From: an uncultured virus (IMG/VR IMGVR_UViG_3300046171_000179)
Lineage: Duplodnaviria; Heunggongvirae; Uroviricota; Caudoviricetes; Crassvirales
IMG/VR virus record: IMGVR_UViG_3300046171_000179
Direction: 5' to 3' (one strand)
DNA length: 64,000 nucleotides
Part shown: piece after piece, positions 39,804 to 64,000 of the stretch
Layout: each line of letters starts with the position of its first letter
Numbering within the stretch: position 1 is the first letter of the stretch
Program-made: the position numbers and the translations under genes
Notes under the pieces: model-generated
Told to the model about the DNA's origin: nothing
Seen by the model: the letters and a program-made list of their open reading frames with translations, nothing else
Database searches by the model: none

Positions 39804-40245
39804 ATGCAATTACAAGTAAGAAAATTACAAGAATCCGATTGGGATTTAATACCAAAATGGTGGGAAGCTTACGGAGCCGAAGGCTTCCCTCGTGATATGT
39901 TACCTGGATCTTTTAGAGTTGGTGACGAAACAAGAAGAAAAAAGAAAAGGCTTAGGTGGCTTTATGGTTTGCAAAGGAGATGATCCTATTGCAGCTATGT
40001 GGCTGTGGATGACAAACAGTAAGACTGCGATTCCAGCTGTAGTAGTTAGTGATAAATCTTATCAAGACACGGACAGAAGTGATGCATTGCAACTCTTAGT
40101 AAATTTTACAACTGATTTTGCCGAGGACATGGGTTATAAATACGCATTTGCTTGGGCAAAAAAAGGAGTGTTATTAGATAAATATAAACAAGCGGAGTAT
40201 TATTGTGATGAAACTCCGTCTTATGAATTAATAATGAAATACTAA
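39804..40245 (+). CDS. Putative GNAT-like virion protein, apparent frameshift near 39930
   Basis: MQLQVRKLQESDWDLIPKWW... joins ...GGFMV...TNSKTA...MGYKYAF after removing one A. Confidence 0.6.
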
Positions 40246-41459: not shown

Positions 41460-41475
41460 TTAATAAATTAATATT

Positions 41476-48900: not shown

Positions 48901-49935
48901 GCTCGTATAAGTAAAAGAAAATTACAAGATGTAGTATCAGGAAGATCAGCTGCTGAAGGAGGTGGTAATCAAATAAGAAAAGATCTACAAAGTGTACTTT
49001 ATTATACAGTAGGTCAAGCCATGGTGTTTAACGCATTACAAACGGCATTATTTGCCGCTGCTTTTGAAGATGATGAAGATGAAAAAGAAAAACTTGTTGA
49101 TGAAAAAACTATTTTATCTGTTGAAAGGGCATTAACTTCTTATGCAAAAAGCTTAGGTAATCCAGGTGCTGTAGTGGGTGCTATATACAACGTTATAGCT
49201 GAAGCTAATGAACAACAAGAAAAATTTGGGTTTATAGATAACCCATATAAAGTTGCTTTAGAAGCTACATCTATATCACCACCTTTAAATACTAAACTAA
49301 GAGACATAGTTGCAATAGGTAATATATATAAATACAATGAAAAAGAAATTAAAAATGATCCTTTTAAACTTTCTCCTGACAACAAGGCTTTGGAAATTAT
49401 TGGTAATGCTGCTTCATTTGGCGGTGTTCCTTTAGATAGAGTTATAAGGAAAGCTCAAAATTTGTCTGCTATAGCTAATGAAGAGGCAGACGCGTGGCAA
49501 AAATTGTTTTTAACATTAGGTTGGAGTAAATGGGAATTAGGTTTACAGAATAATAATAGAAAATCTGGTTTAGATTTAGATTTAGATTTAGACCTAGACC
49601 TAGATTTAGATTTAGACTTAGGGCCTTTAAACAAAATAAAAAAAACTAGTAGTTTACCAAAAAATGTTTTAGGAAGAGCCAATAATGATGGAACTATTGA
49701 AGTAGATCCTTCACTTAAAGGTAAAGAAAAAAAGAAAGTAATAGCGCATGAGAAAAAACACATGCAAGATATGAAGTCTGGTAAATTAAATTATGATGAT
49801 AATTTTGTTTATTATAATGGAAATAAGCATGAGCGTAAAAATGGTAAAATAGACTACAACGGTAAGAAATATATAGAGGGCCATCCTAAACTACCTTGGG
49901 AAGCGGCTGCAAATAAGGTAGAAAAATCTGCATAA
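42910..49935 (+). CDS. Giant polyvalent ejection protein (sigma-region-2-like segment, two HExxH zincin motifs)
   Basis: 2341 aa; HESGH at 46807-46821, HEKKH at 49747-49761. Confidence 0.75.
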   Translation: MEEEFEFITLDNYQSFTPEEEEQELDEFGNPIIINQLSDEQIAKNEKLAFQNALKSVSPQGFWALDKISNFANVIPSTVKGILNAGDALAQGAYEIITGDKIDSIEKQEAFDLALGNVKSVTSPQNVALENLADESIETLSFGIEDRKGEDFISLAEKGDYLESADALMSDLAQGIPSLYLSMVGGGLGAAALGTSSFGSKFDEVKREEVKDEALFQEDALGMSSSYLNKITTSGITGIGDFVGELVTGRLGKIAGRLAQTFGPKVSSKILGKVIGTTGASITEAASEAVPEFVESYLGDYAIGGDEKALEGLSRRMWRSGIIGGILGAGGVSLSNLNSEAKQAINVAVQPKVITKQQLEVFRKIKELEATLETTEDPIAREAIELEINELTQSRQNSINEVSNRVQELSTDQLQELNSINGDIDLFNSVVNDTNSSEIAKEAAQNQINNLEKKAIDIFQQPELKNIELSEKAQELYNERGVEARDEIIETQEGLIRQVAINKLNSLPQNKRAEDNYENLVSQLKYGPGSVEALINSYNPETGVPITAYIAEQLPKRADRIAKQVISQDNVTDFNSTEVSNILTEDNFDFEVQIGSKLLADKLNMPVGLINKALKAVEPGLVSIESMLDSNNKELSPKKKASEIDKEFKRIFNNRLVNDIKNEFGKNTKTKEDFSNYLNKNYIGLAQAFLTQKSGLKGRGISKQWAMNPPTKQEFIDYFEGKDVKKNTRSDRKAALAEAVSNQIAIDARNEFLDANPDLRKAFNERNKIQLKVNRSNKAQEEASKVINETLIADKNEVESMKTLGGGFKSFLNDLKQYKTVKDASQKELIENPQWVKAGVSRGDNIYFEENVDVMKNDLSSVVSSIPKELVDLFGLDSFAFLGQANRALDPASTTLASRLEGGKGSPKWLIKKDGKAERILPGTPGVGFEYFKNAKESAKDIEELYKNKDIDLKLYRQFKNINLNNVEFQNLTNPGKNNFLNVLQRIASDKKYNTVKQRIQALNDAGWNKKSIDALNKANNDLMKFQIDLLKNQYEKGKISKDALFTMLQWQTNIKNGFRGLTSVNSFYLQNGPVKLTKGEHSKPNALTMVQIYNYVTGTKKSRTLDDIISQHTQDFGTKENFNLIDNVFGSTTAMEGNQRLLQGLSPTESASFYDISGQSILSKNLEKSFKENGVPIDVGFAQLQQEYKINGPISVQVENKLNEVNINKFNEVSKQAKEAKANLSNTELAEGVLGVLKNSWGGNINIITDKKAAIDFLIKNNNMTSVQARSYVGKASGFRAGSTIFVGSSSDMLNTAIHESGHIWNPIIKEQAPELWNDMVQKVKDSNLWEATVAAIRNEPEAYPPDQYTDDSFDLEDEVLSILIGNRGETLVEEKNLDKSAFRKFIDSFWKNLRNILGFDPTTKNFQDLTMNEVLDLAVSEIMTGNPLSNFSKLKDVNIPKKTLRTLQESKNPSMRAVRDPEYKALKQLQKDYKENGRDLALAIETSYSNVKDILSFDDWSDLVSSTVKEIKIGKTAESTVVAVAKKDVVNNEKNRKNLINTIKKLNAFIEGDQYLPTEILNKKINDIQDAALKNQKEIAEKQAEGLNKNFRKIINSVTGKLGKPSRWFIPPNAEDIKGLLYTFLPGGKEGVEAKKFFNSTILDPYSRGVADSEAEILQKTRQFTKLMENFKSDLKEVIDGTPYSAGQAIKVYNWIKNGVDVDIEKQSYKDALVEAVETNPELKALADQIEQNFPIEYKATWRNDTTINKSIYDAINSGTRTKHLATFAENVDNIFNKDNLQEIENLYGKKFRQALQNSLQRMKTGRNRVSTDAQSNAFLNWINRAVATTMFVNTRSAVLQLLSSLNFIGKPNNNIFQATAAMFSDNWKKDFNTLWNSDYLKNRRDGAKFDVLADEMSEGDVKGLNKILKFGFLPTRMADSFAIALGGAAYYRNTMDALISKGMSQADAKKEAMRMWQTTAEESQQSSDPSKISEIQSSSIGKVIYAFANTPFQYARISKRKLQDVVSGRSAAEGGGNQIRKDLQSVLYYTVGQAMVFNALQTALFAAAFEDDEDEKEKLVDEKTILSVERALTSYAKSLGNPGAVVGAIYNVIAEANEQQEKFGFIDNPYKVALEATSISPPLNTKLRDIVAIGNIYKYNEKEIKNDPFKLSPDNKALEIIGNAASFGGVPLDRVIRKAQNLSAIANEEADAWQKLFLTLGWSKWELGLQNNNRKSGLDLDLDLDLDLDLDLDLGPLNKIKKTSSLPKNVLGRANNDGTIEVDPSLKGKEKKKVIAHEKKHMQDMKSGKLNYDDNFVYYNGNKHERKNGKIDYNGKKYIEGHPKLPWEAAANKVEKSA
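49570..49620 (+). repeat. Hexamer repeat YTAGAY encoding L(DL)8
   Basis: TTAGATTTAGAT...CTAGAC... Confidence 0.9.
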
Positions 49936-49949
49936 TTAATAATAATAAC

Positions 49950-50897
49950 ATGGCAAAAAAACTTAGTAGAAGAGAAGAAAAATTAGCTGCAATACGTAAG
50001 GCAGATAGGGATCGCGATAGTGAGTTTGATAATCTAACTTTTGAAGAAGGTAGAGGAGCAATAAAAACAAGAGAAAGAGTCGGTCAATATAAAAGAAACA
50101 GACAAGGGGCTAGAGATATGTCTGGCTCTAAAATAAAAAGAGGAGATCAAACTGAAACTTATAAAAAATCAGATGATTCAACAGAAACTTTTGATAGGTT
50201 AGAATCTGGTGCAGATAAAAAAACAAGAAGTAAAAGAAAACAAAGAGCATTAGATAGAGAAACTTTAAGAGATGCTAGAAGAGAAAGAAGAGCGACTAGA
50301 ATAGCGGATAGAAAAGGTATGAGTGTTAGCCAGGCTCAAGACTTTATGAATAATCGTAAAGATAGATTAAATGCCGCTATGGGTGAATTTGGCAAAGGTT
50401 TATTTGGAATAGAGCAAGATCTTAGTAGAATAAAAGATAGAGAATATAGAAAAAGAGGTAAAGGTACTAGGGCGGAAGATTATAAACCTTTTGCTGATTC
50501 AAACACTAGAACTAAAAGTACATATTACGATAATGTTATTGGAAAAGAAGATTTAAAAAAATCTAATGTAACTTTAGAGGGTGGTGAAATAAAAATACCT
50601 AAATTTAAACCAATAAAAAAACCCGGTAAACCAAAAACAGAACAACCAAAACAAACTATTGAATTAACTAAAAGTAATTTAGAAAATACTTTAGACCCCA
50701 CTACTGTTTATTCAGCAAGAACAACTGGTAATACTTTTGATCCTTCTATTTTTACAGAATCTCAACAAAAAGAAAATAAAAAGAGAGATCAAGACATGGA
50801 AGGTGGTGTTGACAAAGAGTATGTAGGTCCATTTAGTAAATTAGATAGAAGTACCATGCAGGAAAATATGTCGAGTATTAAAGGCAGAAGAGGATAA
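49950..50897 (+). CDS. Basic hypothetical protein
   Basis: 315 aa, R/K/D/E-rich. Confidence 0.7.
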   Translation: MAKKLSRREEKLAAIRKADRDRDSEFDNLTFEEGRGAIKTRERVGQYKRNRQGARDMSGSKIKRGDQTETYKKSDDSTETFDRLESGADKKTRSKRKQRALDRETLRDARRERRATRIADRKGMSVSQAQDFMNNRKDRLNAAMGEFGKGLFGIEQDLSRIKDREYRKRGKGTRAEDYKPFADSNTRTKSTYYDNVIGKEDLKKSNVTLEGGEIKIPKFKPIKKPGKPKTEQPKQTIELTKSNLENTLDPTTVYSARTTGNTFDPSIFTESQQKENKKRDQDMEGGVDKEYVGPFSKLDRSTMQENMSSIKGRRG

Positions 50898-51198: not shown

Positions 51199-52941
51199 TT
51201 ATCCATCACAGGATATACAGTTTGGATCCATAGCTTTAGCAGCTATATCACCTCTTAGAACTGATTCAGTTCTCATATAATAAAGAGTTTTTATACCCCT
51301 TTTCCAAGCTTCAAAATGGACTTTATTAACCCATCTTGGCTCAGCCTCCGCAGGAAATGCTAGATTTAATGATACTGATTGATCAATATAATCTTGCCGT
51401 ATTCCAGCTTGTCCAACTAACTCCAGTTGGTTTATCTCTTTAAACGTTTTATAAACGTTCTTGACAGACTCGCCTTCTTCTTGAGTTAGTCGTCCGAGGT
51501 GGTCGTAAAACCATCCATCGAGTTCTTTAATTCCTTGAATGGATCCACCATCTTCCAGAATTTTATCCCAAGTTTCTTTGGTATCAATACCAACTTTCTT
51601 AAGTACTTTCCTAAGTTCATTGTTTTTTCTTATAAATGTTCCTTTAGCTGATTGTTCTGTAAAAACATTAGCTGCCCAAGGCTCTATGCCTGGCGATATG
51701 TTACCACTTAATTTACTATTAGAAACTGTAGGCGCTACAGATCTTAAATGTGTATTTCTAAAACCTGTACCTACACACCACAAAGGCTCACCATATATCT
51801 CAGCAAGCTTACGTGATGCTCTTTCTGTTTCAATTTTAATCTTACTGAATATTTCTCTAGTTTTAAACTGAGCTAAAAGCCCTTCAAAAGCTATTCCCTT
51901 CTTCTGTAACAGCGTGTGCCAGCCTAATACACCTAAACCTATGGCTCGGCCTTTTTCCGCTGATCTAATAGCGTTTTCAAAGCCTTTCATATTCTTAGCT
52001 TTTTGTATAAACTCCTCCATTACACCATCTAAAAACCATGTAGCATCATAGATAAGATTAGTATTTTTCCACTCATCGTATTTAGCAAGATTTAAAGATG
52101 ACAAGCAACAAACAAAACTGTGGCTTTCATCTGTATGTAGTGTTATTTCACTACATATATTAGTCATATGTACCTTTAAGCTATTCGACTTGTAAGCAGG
52201 TGGATTAGCCTTGTTCGTATTACCTTTAAAGAGGATATACGGCTCCCCAGTAGCTTTACGTTTTTGGAGTAGCTTGGACCATCTTTGTCGTGCTTCTTGA
52301 TCTCCGCTCTCGAGCTTTCGCATAAACTTATCGCCAACGACAGCACACTGATGTAGGTTAAGAGATTGCCTGTTGACGTCACCTTTAGGTTCTCTAATTT
52401 CCAACCATTCATCAAAATCAGAGTGTTCGATATTGAGATTAACGGATGCAGCTCCTCTACGTACTGATCCTTGATTGGTCGCGAGTATAGTTGAGTCATA
52501 GATTTTGCAAAAAGGGACAACTCCATCTGATGTTCCATTACCTGTAATTTTAGATCCGGCAGGGCGTATCATATTGATGCCTATACCTACTCCGCCGCCG
52601 TGTTTAGCAAGTAGCATCATTTCTAAGTTCTTGTTACCTATATCATTTATGCTATCAGCAACATCAATACCAAAACAAGAGATAGGTAAACCTCTGTCTG
52701 TACCTGTATTAGATAACACAGGTGATGCTAAACATAGCCAGCCTTTCCAGATGTAGTCAAAAAACTGTTCTGCTAGCTCTGGTTTATATAACCTTCTAGC
52801 AACAGCATTTGAAACACGCGTGTAAGCTTCTCTAGGTGATTCACCCATCAAAAGATATCCACCGATAATAGTTTTCTTATAAACATCAGTATCACCCCAG
52901 TTAGGATAATCTACACCTTTTTTCCAATCGTTATTCCACAT
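51199..52941 (-). CDS. nrdA: Ribonucleotide reductase class Ia alpha (short, no ATP cone)
   Basis: PISCF, TNICSE, VAPT.S, KTLYY, C-terminal CISC. Confidence 0.95.
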   Translation of the reverse strand: MWNNDWKKGVDYPNWGDTDVYKKTIIGGYLLMGESPREAYTRVSNAVARRLYKPELAEQFFDYIWKGWLCLASPVLSNTGTDRGLPISCFGIDVADSINDIGNKNLEMMLLAKHGGGVGIGINMIRPAGSKITGNGTSDGVVPFCKIYDSTILATNQGSVRRGAASVNLNIEHSDFDEWLEIREPKGDVNRQSLNLHQCAVVGDKFMRKLESGDQEARQRWSKLLQKRKATGEPYILFKGNTNKANPPAYKSNSLKVHMTNICSEITLHTDESHSFVCCLSSLNLAKYDEWKNTNLIYDATWFLDGVMEEFIQKAKNMKGFENAIRSAEKGRAIGLGVLGWHTLLQKKGIAFEGLLAQFKTREIFSKIKIETERASRKLAEIYGEPLWCVGTGFRNTHLRSVAPTVSNSKLSGNISPGIEPWAANVFTEQSAKGTFIRKNNELRKVLKKVGIDTKETWDKILEDGGSIQGIKELDGWFYDHLGRLTQEEGESVKNVYKTFKEINQLELVGQAGIRQDYIDQSVSLNLAFPAEAEPRWVNKVHFEAWKRGIKTLYYMRTESVLRGDIAAKAMDPNCISCDG

Positions 52942-53077
52942 TTTTTTTATTTTTATTGTATTCTTCTACAAACTTTAAAGCATCATCTAAATGCTTTTCT
53001 TCCCAATGAATTCTATATTCATATCCGCCAGGAAAAACAGCATCACACTGACTACATTTTATTATATTCTTAGGCAT
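52931..53077 (-). CDS. 48-aa C2H2 zinc-finger protein, not in ORF track
   Basis: C-SQ-C-DAV-F-PGGYE-Y-RI-H-WEEK-H. Confidence 0.7.
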   Translation of the reverse strand: MPKNIIKCSQCDAVFPGGYEYRIHWEEKHLDDALKFVEEYNKNKKNVE

Positions 53078-53429
53078 TGTATAAATATATAGTATATCCT
53101 ATCATTACATTAATATTTACAGCTACTAAATTCCATTGTTTAGCTAACCAAACTTGAGGAATAGATATTAAACCGCCTAATATATAAATAATTGGACCTA
53201 TATTACCAGAGCTTAATATATAAGGAGCTATCATAATAAAAGCAGTTCCCATATAACCAAGTCTTTGAGCTAATCTTTCTTTAGCACTTAAACGCCTGTC
53301 CTGTACAAGTAATCTTAAAAAGCTTTTTTTCCATCTAAACTCACATCTCATACAGGTTTTTTTACCAGTATGTTTAAACTTAGATTCTTTCTTTTTTTTC
53401 TTACATATATTACACTCTCTCATTACCAA
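53070..53429 (-). CDS. Zn-ribbon plus multi-TM protein
   Basis: CNIC/CMRC then hydrophobic helices. Confidence 0.65.
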   Translation of the reverse strand: MVMRECNICKKKKKESKFKHTGKKTCMRCEFRWKKSFLRLLVQDRRLSAKERLAQRLGYMGTAFIMIAPYILSSGNIGPIIYILGGLISIPQVWLAKQWNLVAVNINVMIGYTIYLYNA

Positions 53430-54391
53430 ATATCTTCAAAATCTTCTCCTTCATTTGCTTTGGAATAATCTGTGGGACGTACAGCAAAAAAGTCAGTATG
53501 AGTGTGGCCACCAGTGAGATGGTAAAACCAATCGAGTCTGCTTGCTGCTTTGTCATCGTACTTAAAGTACTTCCCGAGGTGCTTGTATCCAAGCTCAAGC
53601 AGTTTTTCATTAAGTCTTTTTCTAATAAATTGTTTGAGATCGTAGGCTTTAAGGTTTTCAATATCTCCTTGTTCGAACATTTTATCAATGTATCGCTCTT
53701 CTGCTTTAAGCATTGCTTCTGCTGCATTTGTAACATCTTTTTTACAGTCTTCTAATAAATGATTATCTTCTTGACACATGTGTCTAAATAATTGGCAACC
53801 CATTTTACTGTGTAGTGATTCATCGCGAACAGACCACTTCATTTGTTGACCAATACCTTTTAAAAGGTTTCTTAATTGGAAGCTATATAACACAGCAAAA
53901 GCAGAATATAAACTAACTCCTTCAGCAAAAGCGCTAAAAATAGCCAACGATTTTGCAATACCAACTCTATCAGTTCCTTCATAGCTAACTAAGGTATTAA
54001 AACGTTCCATTGTAGCTTCATCTTGTAAGAAAGCTTCAAAATCTTCTAGGCCTAATGTTTCATTAAGATAACTATAAGCAACCGCGTGTATAGTTTCTTG
54101 GCTACCAAACATCATAGCCATTTGTTTTATCTCATGCTTAGGAAACCACGATACAACTTTTTGGGTCCAATAATCAGATACCGCACACTCAGTTTGCGCA
54201 AATCCCAAAAGTATATTTCCAACCAAGTTCTTCTCTGCTTTGGTAAGCTTTTCGTTCCAATCCTTGACATCACCTGACATCGGTATCTCGGTATGAAGCC
54301 AGAATGCTTGAGCTTGTTTAAGCCATCCCTCAGTATAGTACTCTGGATATTCAAACGGTTTGTATGCAATTCTTTCATCAAATAATCCCAT
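53423..54391 (-). CDS. nrdB: Ribonucleotide reductase beta
   Basis: ETIHAVAY, EGVSLYSAF, RDESLH diiron motifs. Confidence 0.95.
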   Translation of the reverse strand: MGLFDERIAYKPFEYPEYYTEGWLKQAQAFWLHTEIPMSGDVKDWNEKLTKAEKNLVGNILLGFAQTECAVSDYWTQKVVSWFPKHEIKQMAMMFGSQETIHAVAYSYLNETLGLEDFEAFLQDEATMERFNTLVSYEGTDRVGIAKSLAIFSAFAEGVSLYSAFAVLYSFQLRNLLKGIGQQMKWSVRDESLHSKMGCQLFRHMCQEDNHLLEDCKKDVTNAAEAMLKAEERYIDKMFEQGDIENLKAYDLKQFIRKRLNEKLLELGYKHLGKYFKYDDKAASRLDWFYHLTGGHTHTDFFAVRPTDYSKANEGEDFEDIW

Positions 54392-54610
54392 TTATACTTC
54401 TAGTTTTTTATCTTCTTGTTCTTTTTTCTTTTCTTCAAACATTTTAGTTAATTCTTTTAATGCTTTTTTATAACCTGGTAAAAGTTTAACTAACTCAGTT
54501 GTACCAACTGATATATCTTTCATTGTATTTAACTCTTGGATAATTCTATTTAATACATTACCCATTGTGTCTATTTTATTAGACATTTCTATTAACTTAT
54601 TTTCTTTCAT
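54392..54610 (-). CDS. Hypothetical protein
   Basis: 72-aa ORF abutting nrdB. Confidence 0.7.
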   Translation of the reverse strand: MKENKLIEMSNKIDTMGNVLNRIIQELNTMKDISVGTTELVKLLPGYKKALKELTKMFEEKKKEQEDKKLEV

Positions 54611-54886
54611 ATAAATAATTTTTTACCTAATATTAAAGGACTAGCATCTTTGTTATGATTAACTTCATAATGACTATCAAACTCTTTAATTAATATAGGT
54701 TTGTTTTTAAATCTTCTAGGATATTTCTCTAGTATATATTGTTTTAATTTATCCATAATAAACTGTTATACATAATTCCACAAAAGGTAAATAAAAAACA
54801 TGTTCTACAAATGTTTCCTCTGGATAACTTCTCATACCTATGAGCATTCCAGGATATAATCCAACACTAATTTCCCATCCTGTCAT
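54607..54886 (-). CDS. Two small ORFs (54749-54886 MTGWEIS...; 54607-54756 MDKLKQ...)
   Basis: Manual translation, overlapping start/stop coupling. Confidence 0.55.
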
Positions 54887-55070
54887 TTTTCTGTTCTTTT
54901 AAATAGTAGTTTAACATAGTCATGTGAAACTTTATACGTTCAGCGTAATGCTCACGTAGTGTAAAATCCGTGTTTGTTTCCGATAGATTCGATGTCAGAA
55001 TATCTGATTGGTCCATTTTTTGATTTTATATAATTATTAATATCTTTTTGTAATATTCTACGAGAATACA

Positions 55071-55523
55071 TTATCCTTGCTTCTTTCTTTTTTCTTTGAT
55101 CAGAATCATCGTGTAGTCTACTTCCTTCTGGTTTTGCGGCTTGTAAAGCGTCTTTCCAATCTTGTTTTTCGTGAGCCATAGTTTAAATAATTTCCATCTT
55201 ATAGGGAAAGACTCATTAGCCCTTCCCTTACATTCTATTATGTAGTCTTTTCCAACAAAGTCAGGTGTATACTTAATTCCCAACATTTTCTTTTGCCCTC
55301 TGTTAGTATATTCACCCTTTCCGTTCGCTTGTTTTTCAAAAGATTCATTGTTAAAATTAAATCCTTCGATAAGCTGGAAAACTTCATTTTCATATCCTTC
55401 AAATAATTTGTTTTTTTTAAGAGCCATATAAGTATATCTCTCTAAACCTGATGCAAAGTTAATACCATCATAAGTAATTTTCTTAGATTGTACTGGTCCT
55501 TTTTTTCTAGATCTTTTTTTCAT
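55071..55523 (-). CDS. Endonuclease I-like/Holliday junction resolvase
   Basis: FASGLE...YTPDF...IECKG. Confidence 0.8.
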   Translation of the reverse strand: MKKRSRKKGPVQSKKITYDGINFASGLERYTYMALKKNKLFEGYENEVFQLIEGFNFNNESFEKQANGKGEYTNRGQKKMLGIKYTPDFVGKDYIIECKGRANESFPIRWKLFKLWLTKNKIGKTLYKPQNQKEVDYTMILIKEKRKKQG

Positions 55524-56398
55524 TAAGTTCTGTTTGATACAAACGAAGGAGGTGGTCCTGGATCTGGATAATCAGACAAACTGTCTTTTGGATCTGCATA
55601 AACAAAAGTAGGATCATTATCTTTTACAAAAGTTCCATTAACCATTTTACCCGTACGTTTAGATATAACATCATAAGCTGAGCTTATACAACTTTCTATA
55701 TGTACACCTCTCATGTAAGCTAAGTTTGTTAACACCACAACCATGTCTCCTATAGCGTCTATAACCTCAGGTTGATCATTTTTTAACAAAGCTTTAGCTA
55801 ACTCTCCTGCCTCTTCTTGAAGCTTAACATATTGTGTAGTAGCATTACCTTTATCATACAAGCCTCTTTCTTTAGCCCATTGTCTTATTTTTTCAAACAT
55901 TTTCATAGGTTTTTTCTCACAACCTTGTTTTTGAAAAGGACCAGCTTCGTGCATGGCTTTGTTATAAACATAACAACGGTTATTATTAAACATAGATGTT
56001 TTAACGTTATCTAATATCCACTCTATTTTATCTGTAGCATTTATATTTACAGTTCCGTGTGGTGTTTCCCATTGTAAATCACCTAAAAATCTACCATCAA
56101 TATCTTCTTTAGATATAGCAAATGTAGTTGTTTGCTCTGTTACGTTTACTTTTTTCATTTCTTTATTAAATAATTTATCATAAGGTTTCATATCTACTTT
56201 ATAGCCTAGATCTTTCTGTAAAGTTCTTTCAGCTTTAGCAGCTTCTTTTATATCGTCTGTTTCAAATAATATTTCATATTCACCAGGTTTATAACCTTGT
56301 TCTTCTTCAACACGTTTTTTTATGTTTTTAGTACAACCTATTTTTTTACCAAGTATATGATATATTTTATATTTACCTTTTTTTACCTCTATATTCAT
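55523..56398 (-). CDS. GIY-YIG-like N-terminus fused to MazG-like NTP pyrophosphatase
   Basis: KIYHI..KKIGCT; KLQEEAGELA...DAIGD. Confidence 0.8.
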   Translation of the reverse strand: MNIEVKKGKYKIYHILGKKIGCTKNIKKRVEEEQGYKPGEYEILFETDDIKEAAKAERTLQKDLGYKVDMKPYDKLFNKEMKKVNVTEQTTTFAISKEDIDGRFLGDLQWETPHGTVNINATDKIEWILDNVKTSMFNNNRCYVYNKAMHEAGPFQKQGCEKKPMKMFEKIRQWAKERGLYDKGNATTQYVKLQEEAGELAKALLKNDQPEVIDAIGDMVVVLTNLAYMRGVHIESCISSAYDVISKRTGKMVNGTFVKDNDPTFVYADPKDSLSDYPDPGPPPSFVSNRT

Positions 56399-56400
56399 GT

Positions 56401-56739
56401 TTAATCTTTATATAGTTCAATAACGTAATAAATATTATTTTTACCTTTAACTATAGCCTCTCCTATTTTAGGATATATACTATAGTTGTATCTATATATA
56501 TTATCATTGTTATATTGATAATCAATTAAAGCGTTTGAATCAGAACTTGATTTAAAACTGCTTTTAACTTTACCATAATATGGCGTGTAATATATATCAT
56601 TATATGATTTACCAACTATTACAGCGTCTTGTACTCGTTCTTGGTAAAAGTCATCATATATATCTATAGTTGAATAACTATAATCTGCTTGAAATTGAGC
56701 AAATGTAAATATTGGGAGTAGTAATAATAATAGTTTCAT
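56401..56739 (-). CDS. Putative exported protein
   Basis: MKLLLLLLPIFTFAQ signal peptide. Confidence 0.6.
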   Translation of the reverse strand: MKLLLLLLPIFTFAQFQADYSYSTIDIYDDFYQERVQDAVIVGKSYNDIYYTPYYGKVKSSFKSSSDSNALIDYQYNNDNIYRYNYSIYPKIGEAIVKGKNNIYYVIELYKD

Positions 56740-56744
56740 ATTTT

Positions 56745-56996
56745 TTAATTTTCATTGTTACGATTAATCATAGCTTCTTCTATCTCATCTTGTAAACATC
56801 TTTTAGCTGCTTCAAGATATAATATAGCGTCCATCATCTCTTCTTGAACGTCAATAATAAATCTATTAAGATCTTTATCTTCACCCTTGATCTCTTCCAT
56901 CATGGTTGCACCATATTTCTTTTGACCTGTTAAACTGCGTTGGTCCATTTTTTTTAATACAGTCTGTACTATTTCGTCTTTTGTTTCTATTTGCAT
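56745..56996 (-). CDS. Small all-alpha NTP-PPase-like protein
   Basis: R...G.KKYG...QEE..DAILYL. Confidence 0.55.
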   Translation of the reverse strand: MQIETKDEIVQTVLKKMDQRSLTGQKKYGATMMEEIKGEDKDLNRFIIDVQEEMMDAILYLEAAKRCLQDEIEEAMINRNNEN

Positions 56997-57000
56997 ATTA

Positions 57001-57639
57001 TTATATTTTATTGTTATAAAGATGTAAATTGTGTGCGTAATGATAATATTCTCCAACGTCTACAGATACTCTATCTGCAACCATTTTTTGTAGATATGAA
57101 AAACAGTATTGATCAATACAAAAGCCAAACCAGAGATCATTAGATCGCATCAGAACAGCCATGTTTAGTTTGTTATTCAATATAGTAAACTGAACAGCAT
57201 AAGTACAAGGAGTATCCTTACGATATAAGGCATGTTCTTTACCATCGTAAATACTTATAGCTGCGTGCCTAGTATCTTTATCATGTTTTAACTTAGCTAT
57301 AACATAATCTAATTGATAGTTACGTTCCCATTGATATCCATAATTAGAATTAACATGACGATCTATAGACATACGCTCCCATATAGCAGGTACTTTGCCA
57401 TATAACTCTCCAAGCTTATCAATATTATTATCACCTGATAGATACCACTTCCATTCAGCTTCAGCATAATCTATATTAAAGTTTCTTTTTTCATTAGTTA
57501 TAATATTATCTAATGGATCAGATAAAGTAAAACCAACATTAAATAAAGCTTTAGTATCGCCAAAGTTTACACCGTCAGATATTATCTTGTGATAAAAATA
57601 ATTAAAAGCATCGTTAGCACAGTGAAATTTAGTTTTCAT
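57001..57639 (-). CDS. Thymidylate synthase family enzyme (possibly dCMP-specific)
   Basis: YGYQW, DTPCT, MRSNDLWFGFCID, HNLHLY. Confidence 0.85.
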   Translation of the reverse strand: MKTKFHCANDAFNYFYHKIISDGVNFGDTKALFNVGFTLSDPLDNIITNEKRNFNIDYAEAEWKWYLSGDNNIDKLGELYGKVPAIWERMSIDRHVNSNYGYQWERNYQLDYVIAKLKHDKDTRHAAISIYDGKEHALYRKDTPCTYAVQFTILNNKLNMAVLMRSNDLWFGFCIDQYCFSYLQKMVADRVSVDVGEYYHYAHNLHLYNNKI

Positions 57640-57931
57640 AAAATGATATTAAGTATTTAAATATAATTGCACTAAAACATAGATAATAAAACAAACCAAC
57701 AATTTTAGATATATTATAATATAAAGAATAGTATTTACTTTTTAGCATTATTGTTTCTAAATTAAATAGAATAAATAATAATATACTAAATAATATTATT
57801 GCAGGTTTCAAACCATTAACTTGTCTTAAATCTACATATATAATCAATGATGTTACTGTAAATATAATAATAATTATTGAAAATAAAAAGTTTTTTAAGC
57901 TTAAATAATTAAACTTTCTTCTGTTTATCAT
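57629..57931 (-). CDS. Membrane protein
   Basis: Three hydrophobic segments; very AT-rich. Confidence 0.5.
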   Translation of the reverse strand: MINRRKFNYLSLKNFLFSIIIIIFTVTSLIIYVDLRQVNGLKPAIILFSILLFILFNLETIMLKSKYYSLYYNISKIVGLFYYLCFSAIIFKYLISFYEN

Positions 57932-58211
57932 AATAGTATTTATATGCGTTCATAACTTCATCCCATATCTGTTTCCAATCATAATGATGTTTAGACTTAT
58001 AAACTTTTTTATGTTTACCAGGTTCTGATACACCAACGTGCCATTTACCGTTTTTATTAGTAACAGGTATTGGAGATATTATTATACCTTGTTTTACTCC
58101 CCAACTATACCACACGCGTTGTTCATCGCTCATCATCCACTCATCGTCTAATAAAAAACCAGACTTTTTTTTCTTAGCAAGCTCTCTTGCTTTTAAAGTA
58201 CCTACACTCAT
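57909..58211 (-). CDS. Hypothetical protein
   Basis: 100-aa ORF directly after primase. Confidence 0.7.
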   Translation of the reverse strand: MSVGTLKARELAKKKKSGFLLDDEWMMSDEQRVWYSWGVKQGIIISPIPVTNKNGKWHVGVSEPGKHKKVYKSKHHYDWKQIWDEVMNAYKYYYDKQKKV

Positions 58212-59921
58212 CTATCCTTCCCAAGGCATTGAATCTAACTCTTGTTGATACGGTATGTAGTCGCCTGAGTCTTTATTCCATTTAAAGTGTGCCTCTGCTT
58301 GGTTTTCTCCAAGGTTTTGAAACTTAACTTTAAGTACTTTAACCTTAACTGTTTTATTAGTGTAATTCCTATGAACAAGAAGCCCGTGATAACTAGCATC
58401 ATACCACTCACCACCTCCTTTAATAGAATACATTGTCGGTTCATCCATTGTTCCATCATCTTTCTTATACATTTTAGTTGGGTGAGCTACAACAATAACA
58501 AGTACATCATGCTTTTTTGCAAAAGCTTCTATACGTGTTAAGTATTCCATCGTTGCATCAGGTATACTCATTGCACTAGCTCCGTTCATTTTTACTTTAT
58601 TATATGGATCTATAACTAAACACTTTATACCTTTACGTTTAACTAATTCAGCACCTTTGTTTAGCACAGAATCAAGATCATATCTTTCATTTTCTATAAA
58701 GTAAAAGTTATCATCTACTAGTTCTGTAACTTGATTCCACTTATCTGTACCTATATCTTCTTTCTTAGGCATCCAACCTCCTATCTTACGTATTAATTTA
58801 TGAGTATGTAAGAATGTAGGTTTGTTCTCTGGTGAAGCAAATGCTGTTTTCCAGCCGTACTTCATTTGGTAACCCACCACCATTCGATCAACAAAATCAG
58901 ACTTCCCACTGCTAGGAACGCCTGTAACGGTGATGAATTGCCCTGTGTAAGTAGAGAATATGCTATCAAAGTTATCAAGACCGACTTGATAACCAGGTTT
59001 AAAACCTTCATGAATAAATTCTTGTAGTTCATCATTTACATCTTTTAAGGTTACTACATTTTCAAGAGGAACAGGACTAGCTGTATCAACAAGACGCTTG
59101 AGCATAGTATTGCCGTAGCGTAACATATATTCATTAGCATCTTTACAGTCGTTAAAGTCAACTGTATAACATACCTCTGCTCCGAACCGTCTAATGAGTT
59201 CTTGCTGTAGATTTTGTCCTGCTTCATCTTTGTCAACTGCAATGATAATTTTGGATTTGTCATCGAAATATTCAATGCAATTATCAAGGTAATCAAGGTT
59301 AAGGCGGTTAAGAGTAGCTCCGTTTGGTACACTGACCACACTGTCGATCTTAGAATCCACAAAAGATAAAGCATCCATTTCGCCTTCCACAATAACAACA
59401 TAATCACGGCCAATAGTACTATCAATATTATAGAATACTTTTTCGGCACCTTTAACAAGTTTAAAGTTTTTTCTACCATCTCTATATTTTATATTTATAA
59501 GTTCGTTATTAATAAAATAATTAAATTGAATAGTGTTCTCAACTTTAGAGGTCTGTGGCATCCACTCAGAACCTTCAGATATTCTCATCTTAATAAGTGT
59601 TCGTTGTGAAATGCCTCTGTCCTCAAACCATTTAACAGCTCTATCGCTTATAAGTACATTATTATGCCATTCAGGTTTTGTATATACTTTATTTACATCT
59701 CCTTTACGTTGAAAGGTATGTAACTGAAATACCTCATCACAATTCATACAAGTACCAAGACCACGTTCCCAATCATACATAGCACATTTTGCTTTACGAT
59801 TCTCAGGTTTTCTATCAGCAGAGCAAAGAGGACAAGTGCCCTCTTTTTTCCCTACTTCAAGATCATACTGATTGAACTGGTCAATAGTAAATCCGTTGAT
59901 CTCTGTATTGTTAATTGTCAT
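58212..59921 (-). CDS. Primase-helicase (T7 gp4/Twinkle-like)
   Basis: CPLC/CMNC Zn site, IVEGEMD and D.DEAG TOPRIM, GVPSSGKS, VIDP, VVAHP. Confidence 0.93.
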   Translation of the reverse strand: MTINNTEINGFTIDQFNQYDLEVGKKEGTCPLCSADRKPENRKAKCAMYDWERGLGTCMNCDEVFQLHTFQRKGDVNKVYTKPEWHNNVLISDRAVKWFEDRGISQRTLIKMRISEGSEWMPQTSKVENTIQFNYFINNELINIKYRDGRKNFKLVKGAEKVFYNIDSTIGRDYVVIVEGEMDALSFVDSKIDSVVSVPNGATLNRLNLDYLDNCIEYFDDKSKIIIAVDKDEAGQNLQQELIRRFGAEVCYTVDFNDCKDANEYMLRYGNTMLKRLVDTASPVPLENVVTLKDVNDELQEFIHEGFKPGYQVGLDNFDSIFSTYTGQFITVTGVPSSGKSDFVDRMVVGYQMKYGWKTAFASPENKPTFLHTHKLIRKIGGWMPKKEDIGTDKWNQVTELVDDNFYFIENERYDLDSVLNKGAELVKRKGIKCLVIDPYNKVKMNGASAMSIPDATMEYLTRIEAFAKKHDVLVIVVAHPTKMYKKDDGTMDEPTMYSIKGGGEWYDASYHGLLVHRNYTNKTVKVKVLKVKFQNLGENQAEAHFKWNKDSGDYIPYQQELDSMPWEG

Positions 59922-59987
59922 ATTAATCTTCGATTAAAGTTATATTCCCGTCGCTGTCGGTATTAATACTAATATAATCTTCTTCCA

Positions 59988-60317
59988 TTAGAAAGGAAGG
60001 TCAGGATCTGAACCAGCATTTGAGATACTTTGTAAAGTCTCTACATTACTTTGCTGAGGTTCACCTTCTCTAGGAGTTACCGCTACATTATTACCGTTAG
60101 TCCAAACAACTTTTACATTACCTAAAAATGTTTTAGGAGCTTTAGCATCTCTTTCATCTTTAGTTTGTTCAGTTTGTATATAACCAGCATCTCCGTATTG
60201 GCCTAGCTCATCGTTAAGTACGATAGTAATAGGATAGTATTTACCTTTTTTACCTTCATATATCTTAGACTTATCAATCTTAGTTAGATCAATATTAGCT
60301 GAAATTAAACTTGCCAT
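59988..60317 (-). CDS. Single-stranded DNA-binding protein
   Basis: IDLTKIDK...FLGN; C-terminal DPDLPF. Confidence 0.75.
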   Translation of the reverse strand: MASLISANIDLTKIDKSKIYEGKKGKYYPITIVLNDELGQYGDAGYIQTEQTKDERDAKAPKTFLGNVKVVWTNGNNVAVTPREGEPQQSNVETLQSISNAGSDPDLPF

Positions 60318-60485
60318 TTAGTATGTATTTATAGTGTTAAACATTCTTCGCATCTGATCTTTTGTAGCACCTGTAGTTCTACGTAGATTATCAACAGCCT
60401 TAGTATGCGATTGGTTGCTGTAAAAATTATTCACGCTTGTGTTAACTCCTGTTACATCACAAACTCTTTTTCTTGTTCTTGCCAT
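60318..60485 (-). CDS. 55-aa hypothetical protein, not in ORF track
   Basis: MARTRKRVCDVTG...; fills gap. Confidence 0.6.
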   Translation of the reverse strand: MARTRKRVCDVTGVNTSVNNFYSNQSHTKAVDNLRRTTGATKDQMRRMFNTINTY

Positions 60486-60494
60486 AAAATTAAA

Positions 60495-61226
60495 TTAAAG
60501 TGTTTTGGAGATATAATATTGGCTAAAATCTCCTTCGCCATTTACAAAAAACTCATTATATGCTTGAGCTGCTTTAGCAACTTTGTTTTGACCTGATTGT
60601 AGGAACTGATCACTACAGTCAAATAAACCTAGCTGCATAGTCTTTTTATCGACAACTATAAATATAAGCTCATAGCCAAACATCTTAGAATATATATAAG
60701 CTTGACTGTCGTAGTTATATTTATATGCTGAACTAGCAAATGAATTTATATTATTTGTTGTTTTAAGATCTACTATTAGTTGATGACTATGATTTATGAT
60801 ATCAGCTTTGCCTTTCCAATTTAAGTCTTCTAACTTAGTTACACCAGGCACTTCATATTCAACGTTACCCTCACGTATCATATCATAAAACAATTCATTA
60901 TCTAATACTTTCTCTCGCATCAACTCAATATGATCAGCTTCATGTTCTAACAGGCATATATCTTCGCCAGCTAACTCTTTGTAAGCTTTTGTATTTCTAG
61001 TTGATGATTTTATTATCTTATACTTATCAAGCTTTTCAGGCTCTAGTATAGTCGTATGGAAATAACCACCTACAACAAATGCAGGATTTGGTGGCGATGG
61101 CTTTTTAAAATCGAGAGGATTATTTAATAGCGCTGATATGTCACTGTTACTAAGATATTGTTTACCAAAATCTCCGTAATAATGTTCATCATCTCTTAAC
61201 TTCTCGATTATATCTTTTTTATCCAT
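60495..61226 (-). CDS. PD-(D/E)XK exonuclease (RecE/DUF3799-like)
   Basis: LSNSDI, G.YFHT.ILEP, KGKAD, VDLKT, Y..QAYIY. Confidence 0.85.
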   Translation of the reverse strand: MDKKDIIEKLRDDEHYYGDFGKQYLSNSDISALLNNPLDFKKPSPPNPAFVVGGYFHTTILEPEKLDKYKIIKSSTRNTKAYKELAGEDICLLEHEADHIELMREKVLDNELFYDMIREGNVEYEVPGVTKLEDLNWKGKADIINHSHQLIVDLKTTNNINSFASSAYKYNYDSQAYIYSKMFGYELIFIVVDKKTMQLGLFDCSDQFLQSGQNKVAKAAQAYNEFFVNGEGDFSQYYISKTL

Positions 61227-61806
61227 TCAATTGTGTTAAAGCTTCAGCTGTTATAGAATATTTTTCTTGTAATGTCTTCATTAAACCTCCATTAGCTAAG
61301 AACTTTTTAGCTTGATCTATATTTTTCATATCTATAATAGGTTTCTTATCAGCCATTATCTTATTTTCAAGAGCGTTAACTTTAGCTTTTAAAGTTTGTC
61401 TTGCTACATCTTTCCCATGCGTATTAGTTGCATCTGAATCAGCTGTATCATCTATAAGTAATAGATTACCTAATGCATATTTCTTACCGTAAGATGATGC
61501 TGAACCAAACTTCTGAGGCATCTGCATACCTTTTTGGTTAAGATCAATACCTACTACAGCAGTACCTTCAACTTGATCGCCTGTTTCAGCATCTACAATT
61601 GTAGCTGTACTATGTAATATAGGAAACTCACCTAATGTTAAGTTTTCTCTTATTGTAAAATATACTCCATGTTCTTTATTAAAAGGTTTTAAAGCTTCTA
61701 ATATATCTTCAGCAGATCTAAACATGTAATTACCAAAGCTATTTTTTCTAGACTTTTTAGCTTTGAACTCTGCTTGTATTGTACTAAGTTTTTCTCTAAT
61801 GTTCAT
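61219..61806 (-). CDS. ERF-family ssDNA annealing protein
   Basis: NSFGNY.FRSAEDI; Q..GSASSYGKKYAL...DD..D.D. Confidence 0.88.
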   Translation of the reverse strand: MNIREKLSTIQAEFKAKKSRKNSFGNYMFRSAEDILEALKPFNKEHGVYFTIRENLTLGEFPILHSTATIVDAETGDQVEGTAVVGIDLNQKGMQMPQKFGSASSYGKKYALGNLLLIDDTADSDATNTHGKDVARQTLKAKVNALENKIMADKKPIIDMKNIDQAKKFLANGGLMKTLQEKYSITAEALTQLNG

Positions 61807-61905
61807 TTGATTGAATTATTTCGTAATTAATATACATACCATTTTTATAATATGTCCTGATACCATCACCCTCGGTGTATGTATCAATGTCTGTTATATA
61901 ATCTT

Positions 61906-62268
61906 TCATATTAAATCATATATAACTCCATTCTTCTTAAATAATCTACGTTTAGCGTAGTTATCTATCTTGCCAAATACAGTATGACCATCAACGTAGT
62001 CATTATTATATTCATCATACTCATTATATATCTTAGCTTTTTTAGATACACCTTTACCTGTTAATTGATAACTGTTAATTGGTATATATTTACCTGATGA
62101 TACAGGTGATACAATGCTAAAATTATAATTTGCCTGTTTTTCTCTAGGCGCATTATCTTTGTAAGGATTAGGAGGTGAATCCCCTTGCCTTACATATTGT
62201 AATTCGTCAATAGCTGTGAAACAGCTTTTATATTTAGTCTTAAACTTATACATAGTATTATAGTGCAA
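61906..62268 (-). CDS. Hypothetical protein
   Basis: 120-aa ORF. Confidence 0.6.
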   Translation of the reverse strand: MHYNTMYKFKTKYKSCFTAIDELQYVRQGDSPPNPYKDNAPREKQANYNFSIVSPVSSGKYIPINSYQLTGKGVSKKAKIYNEYDEYNNDYVDGHTVFGKIDNYAKRRLFKKNGVIYDLI

Positions 62269-62286
62269 TTATTTGTTAAAGGGACC

Positions 62287-63063
62287 TTAATCCTGATATA
62301 TTTTTAAATTTTTTGCAGAGTACTCATGTACTTTTGACTGCGAGCGTATACCATTAGTAGAAACATAGTAAGCTAACTCATTTAAAGCATCTTCATTGGA
62401 TCTTAATCTTTTTAAGAGCCTTTGTTTTTGCTTTTTTACACTTTCCATGTTGCCACCATAGTGTTTAGCAATATCAGCTATTTTTTTAGGTTTAGAATAA
62501 ATATCATCTAAACCATAAAACATTTGCATCATGCCTGAATACTTAGGTATATATTTTTTTAACCATCCTATAAGGTAATCGCCTAGTTTATCATGCTCAT
62601 AATTATATACGTCATCTTCAACCATAGAGATTACATCGCTATCAAACCATTGAGGAAATAATACAGATATAAAACCAAATCCATTTGTATGTCTCTTTTT
62701 ATCTTTATTATTCCAAATGCCTTTTATAGGTCTACCAGATCCATCGACATTTTCTTTTATTCTATCTCCAACAATACCTTTAATACTGATACTCAAGAAC
62801 TTACTAACTGTTTTATTCTTGTCTAATTTTGATTCTAACTTATTTATATAGTTCCAATCAATATTACTCCAAGCTGTTAGTAATGCTAAATATGCCTCTT
62901 GATTTAGATCATTAATATTCATGACACCAATAGCTGAATAATCTTTTGAATAACTATTTGCTATTTTAGTTGCCATCTTAAAATAATCAGAAGGTATATT
63001 AGATTTTATATTATTAACTGTTTGCCGGTTGATAGCATAGATTTTCTTATTAAAATTTTTCAT
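62287..63063 (-). CDS. Sigma70-family sigma factor
   Basis: DLNQEAYLALL region 2; FYGL...IADIA...ESVKKQKQRLLKRLR region 4. Confidence 0.75.
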   Translation of the reverse strand: MKNFNKKIYAINRQTVNNIKSNIPSDYFKMATKIANSYSKDYSAIGVMNINDLNQEAYLALLTAWSNIDWNYINKLESKLDKNKTVSKFLSISIKGIVGDRIKENVDGSGRPIKGIWNNKDKKRHTNGFGFISVLFPQWFDSDVISMVEDDVYNYEHDKLGDYLIGWLKKYIPKYSGMMQMFYGLDDIYSKPKKIADIAKHYGGNMESVKKQKQRLLKRLRSNEDALNELAYYVSTNGIRSQSKVHEYSAKNLKIYQD

Positions 63064-63275
63064 ATATGTAATAATTTTAATCTTCTACTATATTTTCTTA
63101 TTAAAGCAGCTCTGTGTTTAAGCTCTTTTACAGGTATTCTATTCCTAGCTTCTCCTGTTAATACAATTTCTATAATTTCTTCACGTAGAGAGTAAATTTG
63201 ATTCCAAAGATACTCTCTGTGTTTAGAAGCTCTAGATCTAGTATCAATTCTTATATTTCCTATTTTTATTAGCAT
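63060..63275 (-). CDS. Hypothetical protein
   Basis: 71-aa ORF overlapping sigma start. Confidence 0.6.
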   Translation of the reverse strand: MLIKIGNIRIDTRSRASKHREYLWNQIYSLREEIIEIVLTGEARNRIPVKELKHRAALIRKYSRRLKLLHI

Positions 63276-63828
63276 CTTTCTTTGGTTTTCTAAATGCGTT
63301 GATCTTAGATCTTATGTTAAATACATCTGTTGATGTAAGATGTTTATATATTTGATATCCTTTCATACGTAGTTCCAAATTGAGTCTATTTTTTCGACAT
63401 AAGTTATACCGCCTTGATTAAAATGTAGATTCTTATGTTTATCAAAGCTAGGTGGTAATTCTCCAATAGCATAAGGTTTAAATTCAATTACTTTTCCAGT
63501 TGTTAAACTTCTTAGTTTTCTTGTTTTCATTAATATAAAGGTTTAGTTAAATTTTCTTCTGTTTCCCAATGCTCAACAATATGTTCACCTGTTGAGTCAT
63601 CAATATAATATGTTCTATCGTGTATAGTTATAAATACACAGTCTTCTGATCTTACATCTATTATCATGTTTTCTTTTTAATTGTTAATCCTTGTTTACCG
63701 AATATAGTAGTATAACCAAACTCATATCCGTCTTCTAACTCGTATTTAATGTTCTTAGCTGGTGGTTTATTTGCACCACCACCCATATATTTGTCTATTA
63801 AATACCTTTTTATCTCTTTTTTATTCAT
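63250..63828 (-). CDS. Four small coupled ORFs (MNKKEIK..., MIIDVRSED..., MKTRKLR..., MKGYQIY...)
   Basis: Manual translation; overlapping stops/starts; outer boundary approximate. Confidence 0.5.
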
Positions 63829-64000
63829 AATCACGAACGCTTTTGAAGAGAGGATGTCTGTAAGAGCCTGATGGTGTACGTTGGAAATAAGTAAACGTTG
63901 CTGTTTTGCCTATATACCACTCAGCAATGTCATACATTTTTGTTAGTATAGGCATTTTATCCATCACTGGCATTCCGAACTCGACACCGTTAGCGTCTCG
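63821..64000 (-). CDS. ATP-dependent DNA ligase, C-terminal fragment
   Basis: YIGKTATFTYFQRTPSGSYRHPLFKSVRDYE matches ligase OB domain/motif VI pattern. Confidence 0.8.
   Translation of the reverse strand, partial: RDANGVEFGMPVMDKMPILTKMYDIAEWYIGKTATFTYFQRTPSGSYRHPLFKSVRDYE

Follow-up and report, generated by a model that had tools for sequence, protein, structure and literature searches.

Does the phage represented by this DNA replace the cytosine of its genome with a modified base and, if so, which base would that be? The stretch under study, the 64,000 nucleotides of the IMG/VR record IMGVR_UViG_3300046171_000179 from an uncultured virus (the window in what follows), carries on its minus strand a small cassette. 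The cassette starts with a gene for a 212-amino-acid protein of the thymidylate synthase (TS) family and continues with genes for proteins of 83, 112 and 291 amino acids. A first-pass annotation, made from the letters of the sequence, had proposed here a cytosine-modification module leading to 5-methylcytosine or 5-hydroxymethylcytosine. Its core holds: we find a TS-family enzyme predicted to be specific for deoxycytidine monophosphate (dCMP) and to modify its C5, with an adjacent pyrophosphatase, and every sequence test run agrees. It had counted two MazG/all-alpha pyrophosphatase-like genes, of which we recognise one as a MazG. Because a T4-like active site is combined with an adjacent MazG pyrophosphatase, the phage DNA probably contains modified cytosine. 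The route that we consider somewhat better supported than an even chance is pre-replicative synthesis of 5-hydroxymethyl-dCMP by a minimal dCMP hydroxymethylase resembling gp42 of phage T4, with MazG acting as a dCTPase.

Membership of the 212-amino-acid enzyme in the TS fold family is evident. Its match to Pfam PF00303 (Thymidylat_synt, E value 5.3e-24) ends at position 215 of the 266 in the profile, and the protein terminates straight after HLYNNKI, without the C-terminal tail of ThyA. A search of PDB sequences returned the CMP hydroxymethylase MilA as the top match (E 3.2e-18, residues 32-210); T4 dCMP hydroxymethylase reached 1.7e-14, the best ThyA 3.6e-12 and E. coli ThyA 2.1e-10. PHROG families annotated as thymidylate synthase match the enzyme with an E value of 5.6e-38, and it scores under the cut-off of each of the seven NCBIfam thymidylate synthase models (best score 72.8 bits against 327). 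The family is large. There are 8000 scored matches in the protein database, those listed being about 70% identical and 211-229 residues long, and 531 related stretches in IMG/VR, the best 80 of which make up the 80 loci referred to below. For residue statistics we used a family set of 200 sequences, mostly 212-246 residues long: the window's own enzyme, 79 open reading frames (ORFs) from the 80 best loci and the 120 database proteins listed.

Next, we compared the active site with those of E. coli ThyA and T4 gp42, whose sequences were taken from their database records. The translated gene holds MRSNDLWFGFCID and PCT, just as the first-pass annotation had read, and the motifs quoted there for ThyA (RS.D...G.PFN and PCH) and T4 (MRSND..FGF.ND) agree with the retrieved sequences. 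The residue that it had named as selecting the substrate, Asp176 (the Asp of FCID), falls on ThyA Asn177 and T4 Asp179, which predicts dCMP as substrate over deoxyuridine monophosphate (dUMP). It is Asp in all 200 family sequences, so this is no accident of a single genome. Equally invariant are Ser98, Asp142, Cys145, Thr146 and Asp168, and Tyr100 is kept in 199 of the 200. Cys145, within PCT, aligns with the catalytic Cys148 of T4 and with Cys146 in the PCH of ThyA; Thr146 and Asp168 correspond to ThyA positions 147 and 169, and the enzyme also has Glu62 and, in place of ThyA Trp83, a Met. At five active-site positions compared (D, T, N, D, D) the window's enzyme equals T4 gp42, and of seven T4 dCMP-hydroxymethylase residues checked it has six. 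The role of ThyA position 177 is stated in PMC8670742 and PMC13326640. The first of them, the MetaGPA study, reports that positions 177 and 147 best separate modified-cytosine from unmodified contigs.

The same site also bears on the group added. The evidence favours 5-hydroxymethyl over 5-methyl as the product, since the enzyme has an Asp three residues before the Cys and a Ser two before the Tyr, lacks the C-terminal tail and belongs to a family outside the methylating clade. In T4 the marks of a hydroxymethylase are Asp145 three before the Cys, Ser94 and the absent tail, and the general signature is Asp or Glu three before the Cys, paired with Ser or Thr two before the catalytic Tyr; Asp145 activates water, and D145N gives no 5-hydroxymethyl-dCMP (PMC6400193). 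An acidic residue at ThyA position 143 accompanies non-methyl products according to a 2026 paper in Nucleic Acids Research (PMC13326640). As the gap that MAFFT placed near position 143 differed between two runs, we assigned this position by an ungapped count back from the Cys, the definition used in the T4 paper (PMC6400193).

At ThyA positions 143, 147, 169 and 177 the window's enzyme reads D, T, D, D, and so does T4 gp42. E. coli ThyA and RB69 td, both methylating dUMP, read L, H, D, N; the XP12 enzyme, which methylates dCMP, reads N, P, D, D; and the RB69 5-hydroxy enzyme reads E, T, N, D. SPO1 gp29 and a ViI-like enzyme, which we take to be hydroxymethylases of dUMP, read D, N, D, N. An acidic residue three before the Cys therefore occurs in all four non-methyl reference enzymes (T4, RB69, SPO1 and ViI-like, the product labels of the last two being our assumption) and in none of the three methylating ones (E. 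coli ThyA, RB69 td, XP12).

It is unlikely, in our estimation, that the enzyme instead methylates dCMP, like that of Xanthomonas phage XP12, and that the DNA carries 5-methylcytosine. The XP12 enzyme does share the Asp at ThyA position 177, and N177D by itself converts ThyA into a dCMP methylase (PMC8670742). However, XP12 retains a long ThyA-like C-terminal region, an Asn three before the Cys and a Pro after it, where the window has the T4-like Asp and Thr and the early end; and hydride transfer requires a site sealed by the C-terminal tail (PMC6400193). An ordinary thymidylate synthase or a 5-hydroxy-dCMP synthase is very improbable. The former would account for the TS fold and the PHROG matches, but not for the missing Asn177, His147, Leu143 and tail, nor for the missed NCBIfam cut-offs. 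The latter, of the RB69 gp48 or DLP3 gp80 type, has the Asp at 177 and the Thr at 147 in common with the window; its mark, however, is Asn at ThyA position 169 (D169N; PMC13326640), which the RB69 homologue has and the window's family, with Asp there in 200 of 200 sequences, does not.

A maximum-likelihood tree of 20 rows gave a congruent, if partial, answer. One clade (support 100/99) unites the XP12 dCMP methylase with E. coli ThyA and RB69 td, another (97/97) SPO1 with the ViI-like enzyme. The window's family lies outside both and sits with gene 42 of Bacteroides phage BF503P2. Deep nodes are weak (50/92), and T4 and RB69 sit on very long branches, that of gp42 reaching 3.29. The tree places the family outside the methylating clade without showing kinship to gp42.

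The second component of the cassette is the 291-amino-acid protein, in which three parts, all conserved in an alignment of relatives, are joined: a T5orf172 (GIY-YIG-like) domain, a middle domain with no family match and a MazG domain. PHROG profiles identify a MazG-like pyrophosphatase (E 4e-35), and Pfam finds T5orf172 (E 5.3e-06), PRA-PH (5.6e-06; 27.1 bits against a cut-off of 21.3) and MazG (1.9e-04; 22.0 bits against 22). Within the T5orf172 part Y10, Y13, G21, T23, R29 and E57 are invariant (33 sequences). The structural model of the protein has a mean predicted local distance difference test score (pLDDT) of 79.5. With it, Foldseek aligned residues ~160-260 to Sulfolobus MazG (1vmg), mouse dCTPase (6sqw), human DCTPP1 (7mu5) and the MazG-like enzyme of cyanophage S-2L (7ody) at probabilities of 0.99-1.00, as well as to HisE, and the 13 best VIA-align rows all belong to the MazG or HisE family (Z 7.0-9.8); the MazG domain fills these fold-search lists. 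A profile search of PDB also retrieved 1vmg (E 4e-07). The acidic residues of the two long helices of this domain, E195, E196, E199, E211, D214 and D218, are invariant and presumably serve as metal ligands. On the evidence of profiles and model, the 291-amino-acid protein carries a C-terminal MazG pyrophosphatase domain. Of the two MazG-like genes that had been claimed downstream of the TS gene, this one bears a MazG/PRA-PH domain, and the 83-amino-acid one has no Pfam, PDB or fold link to the family. Homology of the fusion to T4 gp56 could not be detected (hhalign probability 1.2%).

The two genes also occur together. The MazG fusion follows the hydroxymethylase gene in 78 of the 80 loci. Seventy-one loci have TS followed by MazG, and the gene of the 83-amino-acid protein (s83) comes next wherever it is found; the seven loci of the window's own clade have TS, s83, MazG. 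The complete order primase-helicase, TS, MazG, s83, DUF1064 gene and ribonucleotide reductase beta and alpha occurs in 37 of the 80. In the window the minus-strand order is primase-helicase, two small ORFs, TS-family gene, 83-amino-acid gene, 112-amino-acid ORF, 291-amino-acid gene, DUF1064 gene, small ORFs, reductase beta and reductase alpha. Within 10 kb of the cassette, eight related loci have a JmjC-type cupin gene and eight a second cupin gene (L046:6910-7731 and L037:15343-15696); a gene for a pyridoxal-phosphate-dependent enzyme is present in 12 loci and a pyrimidine-dimer glycosylase-like gene in 24.

These features suggest the following pathway. The thiolate of Cys145 would attack C6 of dCMP, Asp176 reading the N3 and 4-amino face of the cytosine, and methylene-tetrahydrofolate would give the one-carbon unit. 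Water activated by Asp142, itself held by Ser98, would then add to the exocyclic methylene. In ThyA a C-terminal tail seals the site; the window's enzyme has none, so hydride transfer would not take place, and the products would be 5-hydroxymethyl-dCMP and tetrahydrofolate. The fusion's MazG domain would most likely return dCTP to dCMP, thereby feeding the hydroxymethylase and keeping plain cytosine out of new DNA. In T4, gp56 does likewise, converting dCTP to dCMP. The phage ribonucleotide reductase would supply deoxynucleotides, and host kinases together with the host replicase would complete the path to 5-hydroxymethylcytosine as the predicted base of virion DNA.

Several observations weigh against hydroxymethylation of the phage DNA. 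The main weakness is that no kinase or polymerase was recognised. We scanned the 71 ORFs of the window (Pfam and PHROGs), 30 early-module ORFs of a complete 69-kb relative (G004, contig positions 7742-25806) and 98 representatives of gene clusters found in the flanks of the 80 loci and not in the window. None of these three sets contained a recognisable deoxynucleoside monophosphate (dNMP) kinase, glycosyltransferase, dCMP deaminase, carbamoyltransferase or DNA polymerase. T4 requires a kinase of its own, gp1. Further, T4 Arg177 is replaced by Cys174 in all 200 family members, the tree, weakly supported in its deep branches, does not join the family to T4 gp42, and similarity between the fusion and T4 gp56 is undetectable by hhalign. 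XP12 methylase has Asn, not Leu, three before the Cys, so the rule that a hydrophobic residue there means a methyl product rests on few enzymes. Finally, CATG is depleted in the window (103 seen against 176.5 expected, observed/expected 0.58, z -5.5) and there is a single GGTACC where 15.8 are expected, with GATC, GGCC and GCGC near expectation. Such depletion of C-containing palindromes hints at continuing restriction pressure; the statistics are mixed and weak. As to Arg177, in T4 it holds the glutamate tail of the folate (PMC6400193).

With neither a polymerase nor a kinase recognised among the phage genes, replication probably depends on the host replicase, and the modified dCMP would need a host kinase. 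Replication in E. coli places 5-hydroxymethyldeoxycytidine in plasmids when T4 enzymes supply the nucleotide, and low-level incorporation without the cognate kinase was seen for related enzymes (PMC13326640). The lack of a kinase may also be taken to mean that the nucleotide is made but hardly incorporated, the enzyme pair reshaping the nucleotide pool by lowering dCTP for an AT-rich genome (26-41% G+C along the window, ~33% overall), and the continued avoidance of some C-containing palindromes would fit. We regard this as quite unlikely: a dedicated hydroxymethylase is a wasteful means of lowering dCTP, the low-level incorporation just mentioned speaks against it, and TS homologues with Asp177 associate with modified contigs (PMC8670742). 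A more speculative variant is a polymerase-free and kinase-free route to cytosine-modified DNA in which the fusion has two jobs, its T5orf172 domain nicking cytosine-containing host DNA and its MazG domain purging dCTP, while s83 or the middle domain supplies a further function such as recruiting the host kinase or replisome; so specific a division of labour is, we think, unlikely. In T4, nicking of cytosine-containing host DNA is the work of DenA.

How does the cassette compare with known systems? T4 gp42 (PDB 1b49, 1b5d, 1b5e, 6a9a, 6a9b) shares with the window's enzyme the TS fold, the Cys with Asp three before and Thr after it, the NSNYG and MRSND motifs, the Asp at ThyA N177 and the lack of the ThyA C-terminal tail. 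It differs in sequence (~26% identity), in length (246 against 212 residues) and in having Arg177 where the window has Cys, and the window's enzyme has no gp1-type kinase, glucosyltransferase or phage polymerase recognised alongside. MilA of Streptomyces (PDB 5b6d, 5jnh) is the best-scoring solved relative, and its Asp aligns with Asp176; it is however longer (325-342 residues), its substrate is the ribonucleotide CMP, and its place is in an antibiotic pathway, not in DNA modification (PMC5175136). The closest annotated phage proteins are gene 42 of Bacteroides phage BF503P2 and its relatives. Gene 42 is 46% identical over 92% of the length, likewise short (226 residues) and has the DTPCT and GFCND motifs; its name, deoxycytidylate 5-hydroxymethyltransferase, is an automatic annotation. 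Unlike the window, these are gut phages, and in place of a MazG fusion the gene has a second TS-like gene and dut beside it. In Agathobaculum phage AB434P2 a gene annotated as deoxyuridylate hydroxymethyltransferase (L102:2902-3564) has Asp, not Asn, at ThyA position 177, and this annotation may name the wrong substrate.

Among phages studied in culture, Enterococcus phages VPE25 and VFW carry a TS homologue with Asp at 177, Thr at 147 and Asp three before the Cys. The VPE25 protein is 33.5% identical to the window's over 91% and, at 281 residues, has a C-terminal extension that the window's enzyme lacks. DNA of both phages resists bisulfite conversion (PMC4999554). Both also carry glucosyltransferase and dUTPase genes, not found in the window, the homologue lying two genes from the beta-glucosyltransferase. 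This raises the question whether 5-hydroxymethyl-dCMP is a first step only, with unrecognised phage proteins (s83, the middle domain of the fusion or other ORFs) decorating it to a hypermodified base. The homologues nearest to the window's among cultured phages, those of VPE25 and Lactobacillus phage ATCCB, adjoin or lie two genes from glucosyltransferases, many window ORFs have no family, and s83 is widely conserved with no known function. We nevertheless hold such decoration to be rather unlikely: neither the window nor the flanks of related loci yielded a glycosyltransferase, carbamoyltransferase, kinase or aminotransferase domain, and s83 is a bare helical hairpin.

For the pyrophosphatase, T4 gp56, mouse and human DCTPP1 and the cyanophage S-2L enzyme (6sqw, 7mu5, 7ody) share the proposed role, cleavage of a canonical deoxynucleoside triphosphate that shapes the pool, and residues 165-262 of the fusion have the MazG fold in common with DCTPP1 and the S-2L enzyme. 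The window's MazG differs from all of these in being fused to T5orf172 and a further conserved domain, and its substrate is putative. The combination of both components has a precedent in MetaGPA, where thymidylate synthases with Asp177 co-occur with PF01503 (PRA-PH) on modified-cytosine contigs of sewage and coastal viromes, one of the three samples being coastal (PMC8670742). The two domains and the diagnostic positions 177 and 147 are the same as here; the MetaGPA result is a statistical association across many contigs. A literature search on hydroxymethylcytosine in marine or flavobacterial phages, and on dCMP hydroxymethylase with MazG in viromes, found no paper on this phage group.

The remaining cassette members are less easily interpreted. 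The s83 gene is best read from an ATG, giving 83 residues; a 103-residue form starting at TTG overlaps the TS gene. The protein is acidic, and its AlphaFold model is all-alpha with two long helices (pLDDT 73). Its invariant pattern is RS..G..KYG ... DVQEE.MDA. Pfam gave no match (best EncFtn-like, E 0.026), Foldseek 0 matches, and VIA-align generic coiled coils only (Z 7.2 or lower); profile searches of PDB and of 5.8 billion proteins led to no family, nor did the ESM Atlas. Comparison of s83 with the MazG fusion by hhalign gave a probability of 0.9%. As s83 was linked to MazG by none of these searches, whether by Pfam, PDB sequence, profile-profile comparison, Foldseek, VIA-align, ESM Atlas or the 5.8-billion-protein search, its reading as a second pyrophosphatase is unproven. 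The name "patatin-like phospholipase", given by JGI to some s83 homologues, is not supported by our scans either. Prediction of a complex between s83 and the MazG fusion scored 0.00 against a mark of 0.32, which weighs neither way on binding. The 112-amino-acid ORF, with a hydrophobic signal-like N-terminus, is an insertion in the cassette; it had no tblastn match in the 80 related loci and no Pfam, PHROG or NCBIfam match.

Table 1. Positions of the cassette, its diagnostic codons and neighbouring genes in the window
Feature	Position	Strand	Evidence or remark
Primase-helicase	58212-59921	-	PHROG 239, E 1.7e-80; upstream of cassette; gene order matches related loci
TS-family enzyme, predicted dCMP hydroxymethylase, 212 amino acids	57001-57639	-	Pfam PF00303, PDB sequence search, residue alignments
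Codons of Ser98-Asn-Tyr100 (T4 Ser94, Tyr96)	57340-57348	-	Alignment; Ser replaced by Pro in E. coli ThyA
Codons of Asp142-Thr-Pro-Cys145 (catalytic Cys; Asp142 = T4 Asp145, ThyA Leu143)	57205-57216	-	Alignments
Codon of Asp176 (ThyA Asn177, T4 Asp179; predicted choice of dCMP over dUMP)	57112-57114	-	Alignments with ThyA and gp42; Asp in 200/200
s83, acidic helical-hairpin protein, 83 amino acids, cassette member	56745-56996	-	tblastn, 67/80 loci, beside the MazG gene every time
112-amino-acid ORF with hydrophobic signal-like N-terminus	56401-56739	-	Inserted in cassette, between s83 and the 291-amino-acid gene
Three-part protein (T5orf172, middle domain, MazG domain), 291 amino acids	55523-56398	-	Pfam, PHROG, alignment; 78/80 loci
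T5orf172 (GIY-YIG-like) domain, residues 18-99	56102-56347	-	Pfam PF10544, 27.3 bits against cut-off of 20
MazG/HisE-type all-alpha NTP pyrophosphatase domain, residues 165-262	55613-55906	-	Foldseek, VIA-align, profile
DUF1064 nuclease-like gene after cassette	55071-55523	-	Pfam DUF1064, E 9.9e-09; PHROG Holliday junction resolvase, E 5.5e-11; 67/80 loci
Class I ribonucleotide reductase beta	53423-54391	-	PHROGs 86 and 84 (pair); Pfam Ribonuc_red_sm; downstream of cassette
Class I ribonucleotide reductase alpha	51199-52941	-	PHROGs 86 and 84 (pair); Pfam Ribonuc_red_lgC; downstream of cassette

Cytosine modification is a known phage strategy, which is here predicted for this group; its principle is textbook knowledge from T4, and the association of Asp177 TS enzymes with PRA-PH/MazG domains is published (PMC8670742). 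If the hydroxymethylation proposed here is true, a very widespread group of seawater phages carries DNA of the 5-hydroxymethylcytosine type. Such DNA would be resistant to many restriction enzymes, and library preparation and enzyme-based methods applied to marine viromes could be biased. A pathway drawing on host kinases and the host replicase would also show how few phage genes the modification needs.

The wider context is that of a marine phage. Near-identical DNA is present in 16 runs from 13 studies of seawater or marine metagenomes, and all 24 runs listed consist of contigs; megablast returned no near-identical phage record. The large terminase matched 87 records in all, the best being a Caudoviricetes sp. 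record with 62% identity, followed by phages of Flavobacterium, Cellulophaga, Tenacibaculum and Maribacter below 60% (the Flavobacterium rows among the matches listed at about 45%). Because of these terminase relatives, the host is probably a member of the Flavobacteriaceae. The plus strand codes for structural and lysis genes up to ~50.9 kb, and the minus strand from ~51 kb to the window end forms a replication and nucleotide-metabolism module. Recognised in this module (positions 51199-64000 and its G004 counterpart) were primase-helicase, Erf, exonuclease, a ligase fragment, a sigma-like factor and ribonucleotide reductase.

Several further observations concern the rest of the window. The portal gene is split into two ORFs of different frames (27639-29432 and 29447-30070), and its parts share one frame in the relatives G002 and G004, forming a single 797-residue ORF in the latter; the split is either an assembly frameshift or a genuine break. 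A chaperonin pair at 3158-4989 consists of a GroEL-like protein (525 residues, Cpn60 E 2.4e-56) and a GroES-like one (93 residues), and an ORF at 24610-25212 also matches a PHROG labelled co-chaperonin GroES. In the structural module, an ORF of 2341 codons (42910-49935) has no Pfam or PHROG match, and the ORFs flanking it (40245-42903 and 49950-50897) are likewise without a family. A DNA ligase gene, of which the C-terminal end only is present (63821-64000), runs off the window end. The window's own 83-amino-acid protein was found on contigs of up to 69,906 bases, and the genome is for this reason probably ~6 kb longer than the window.

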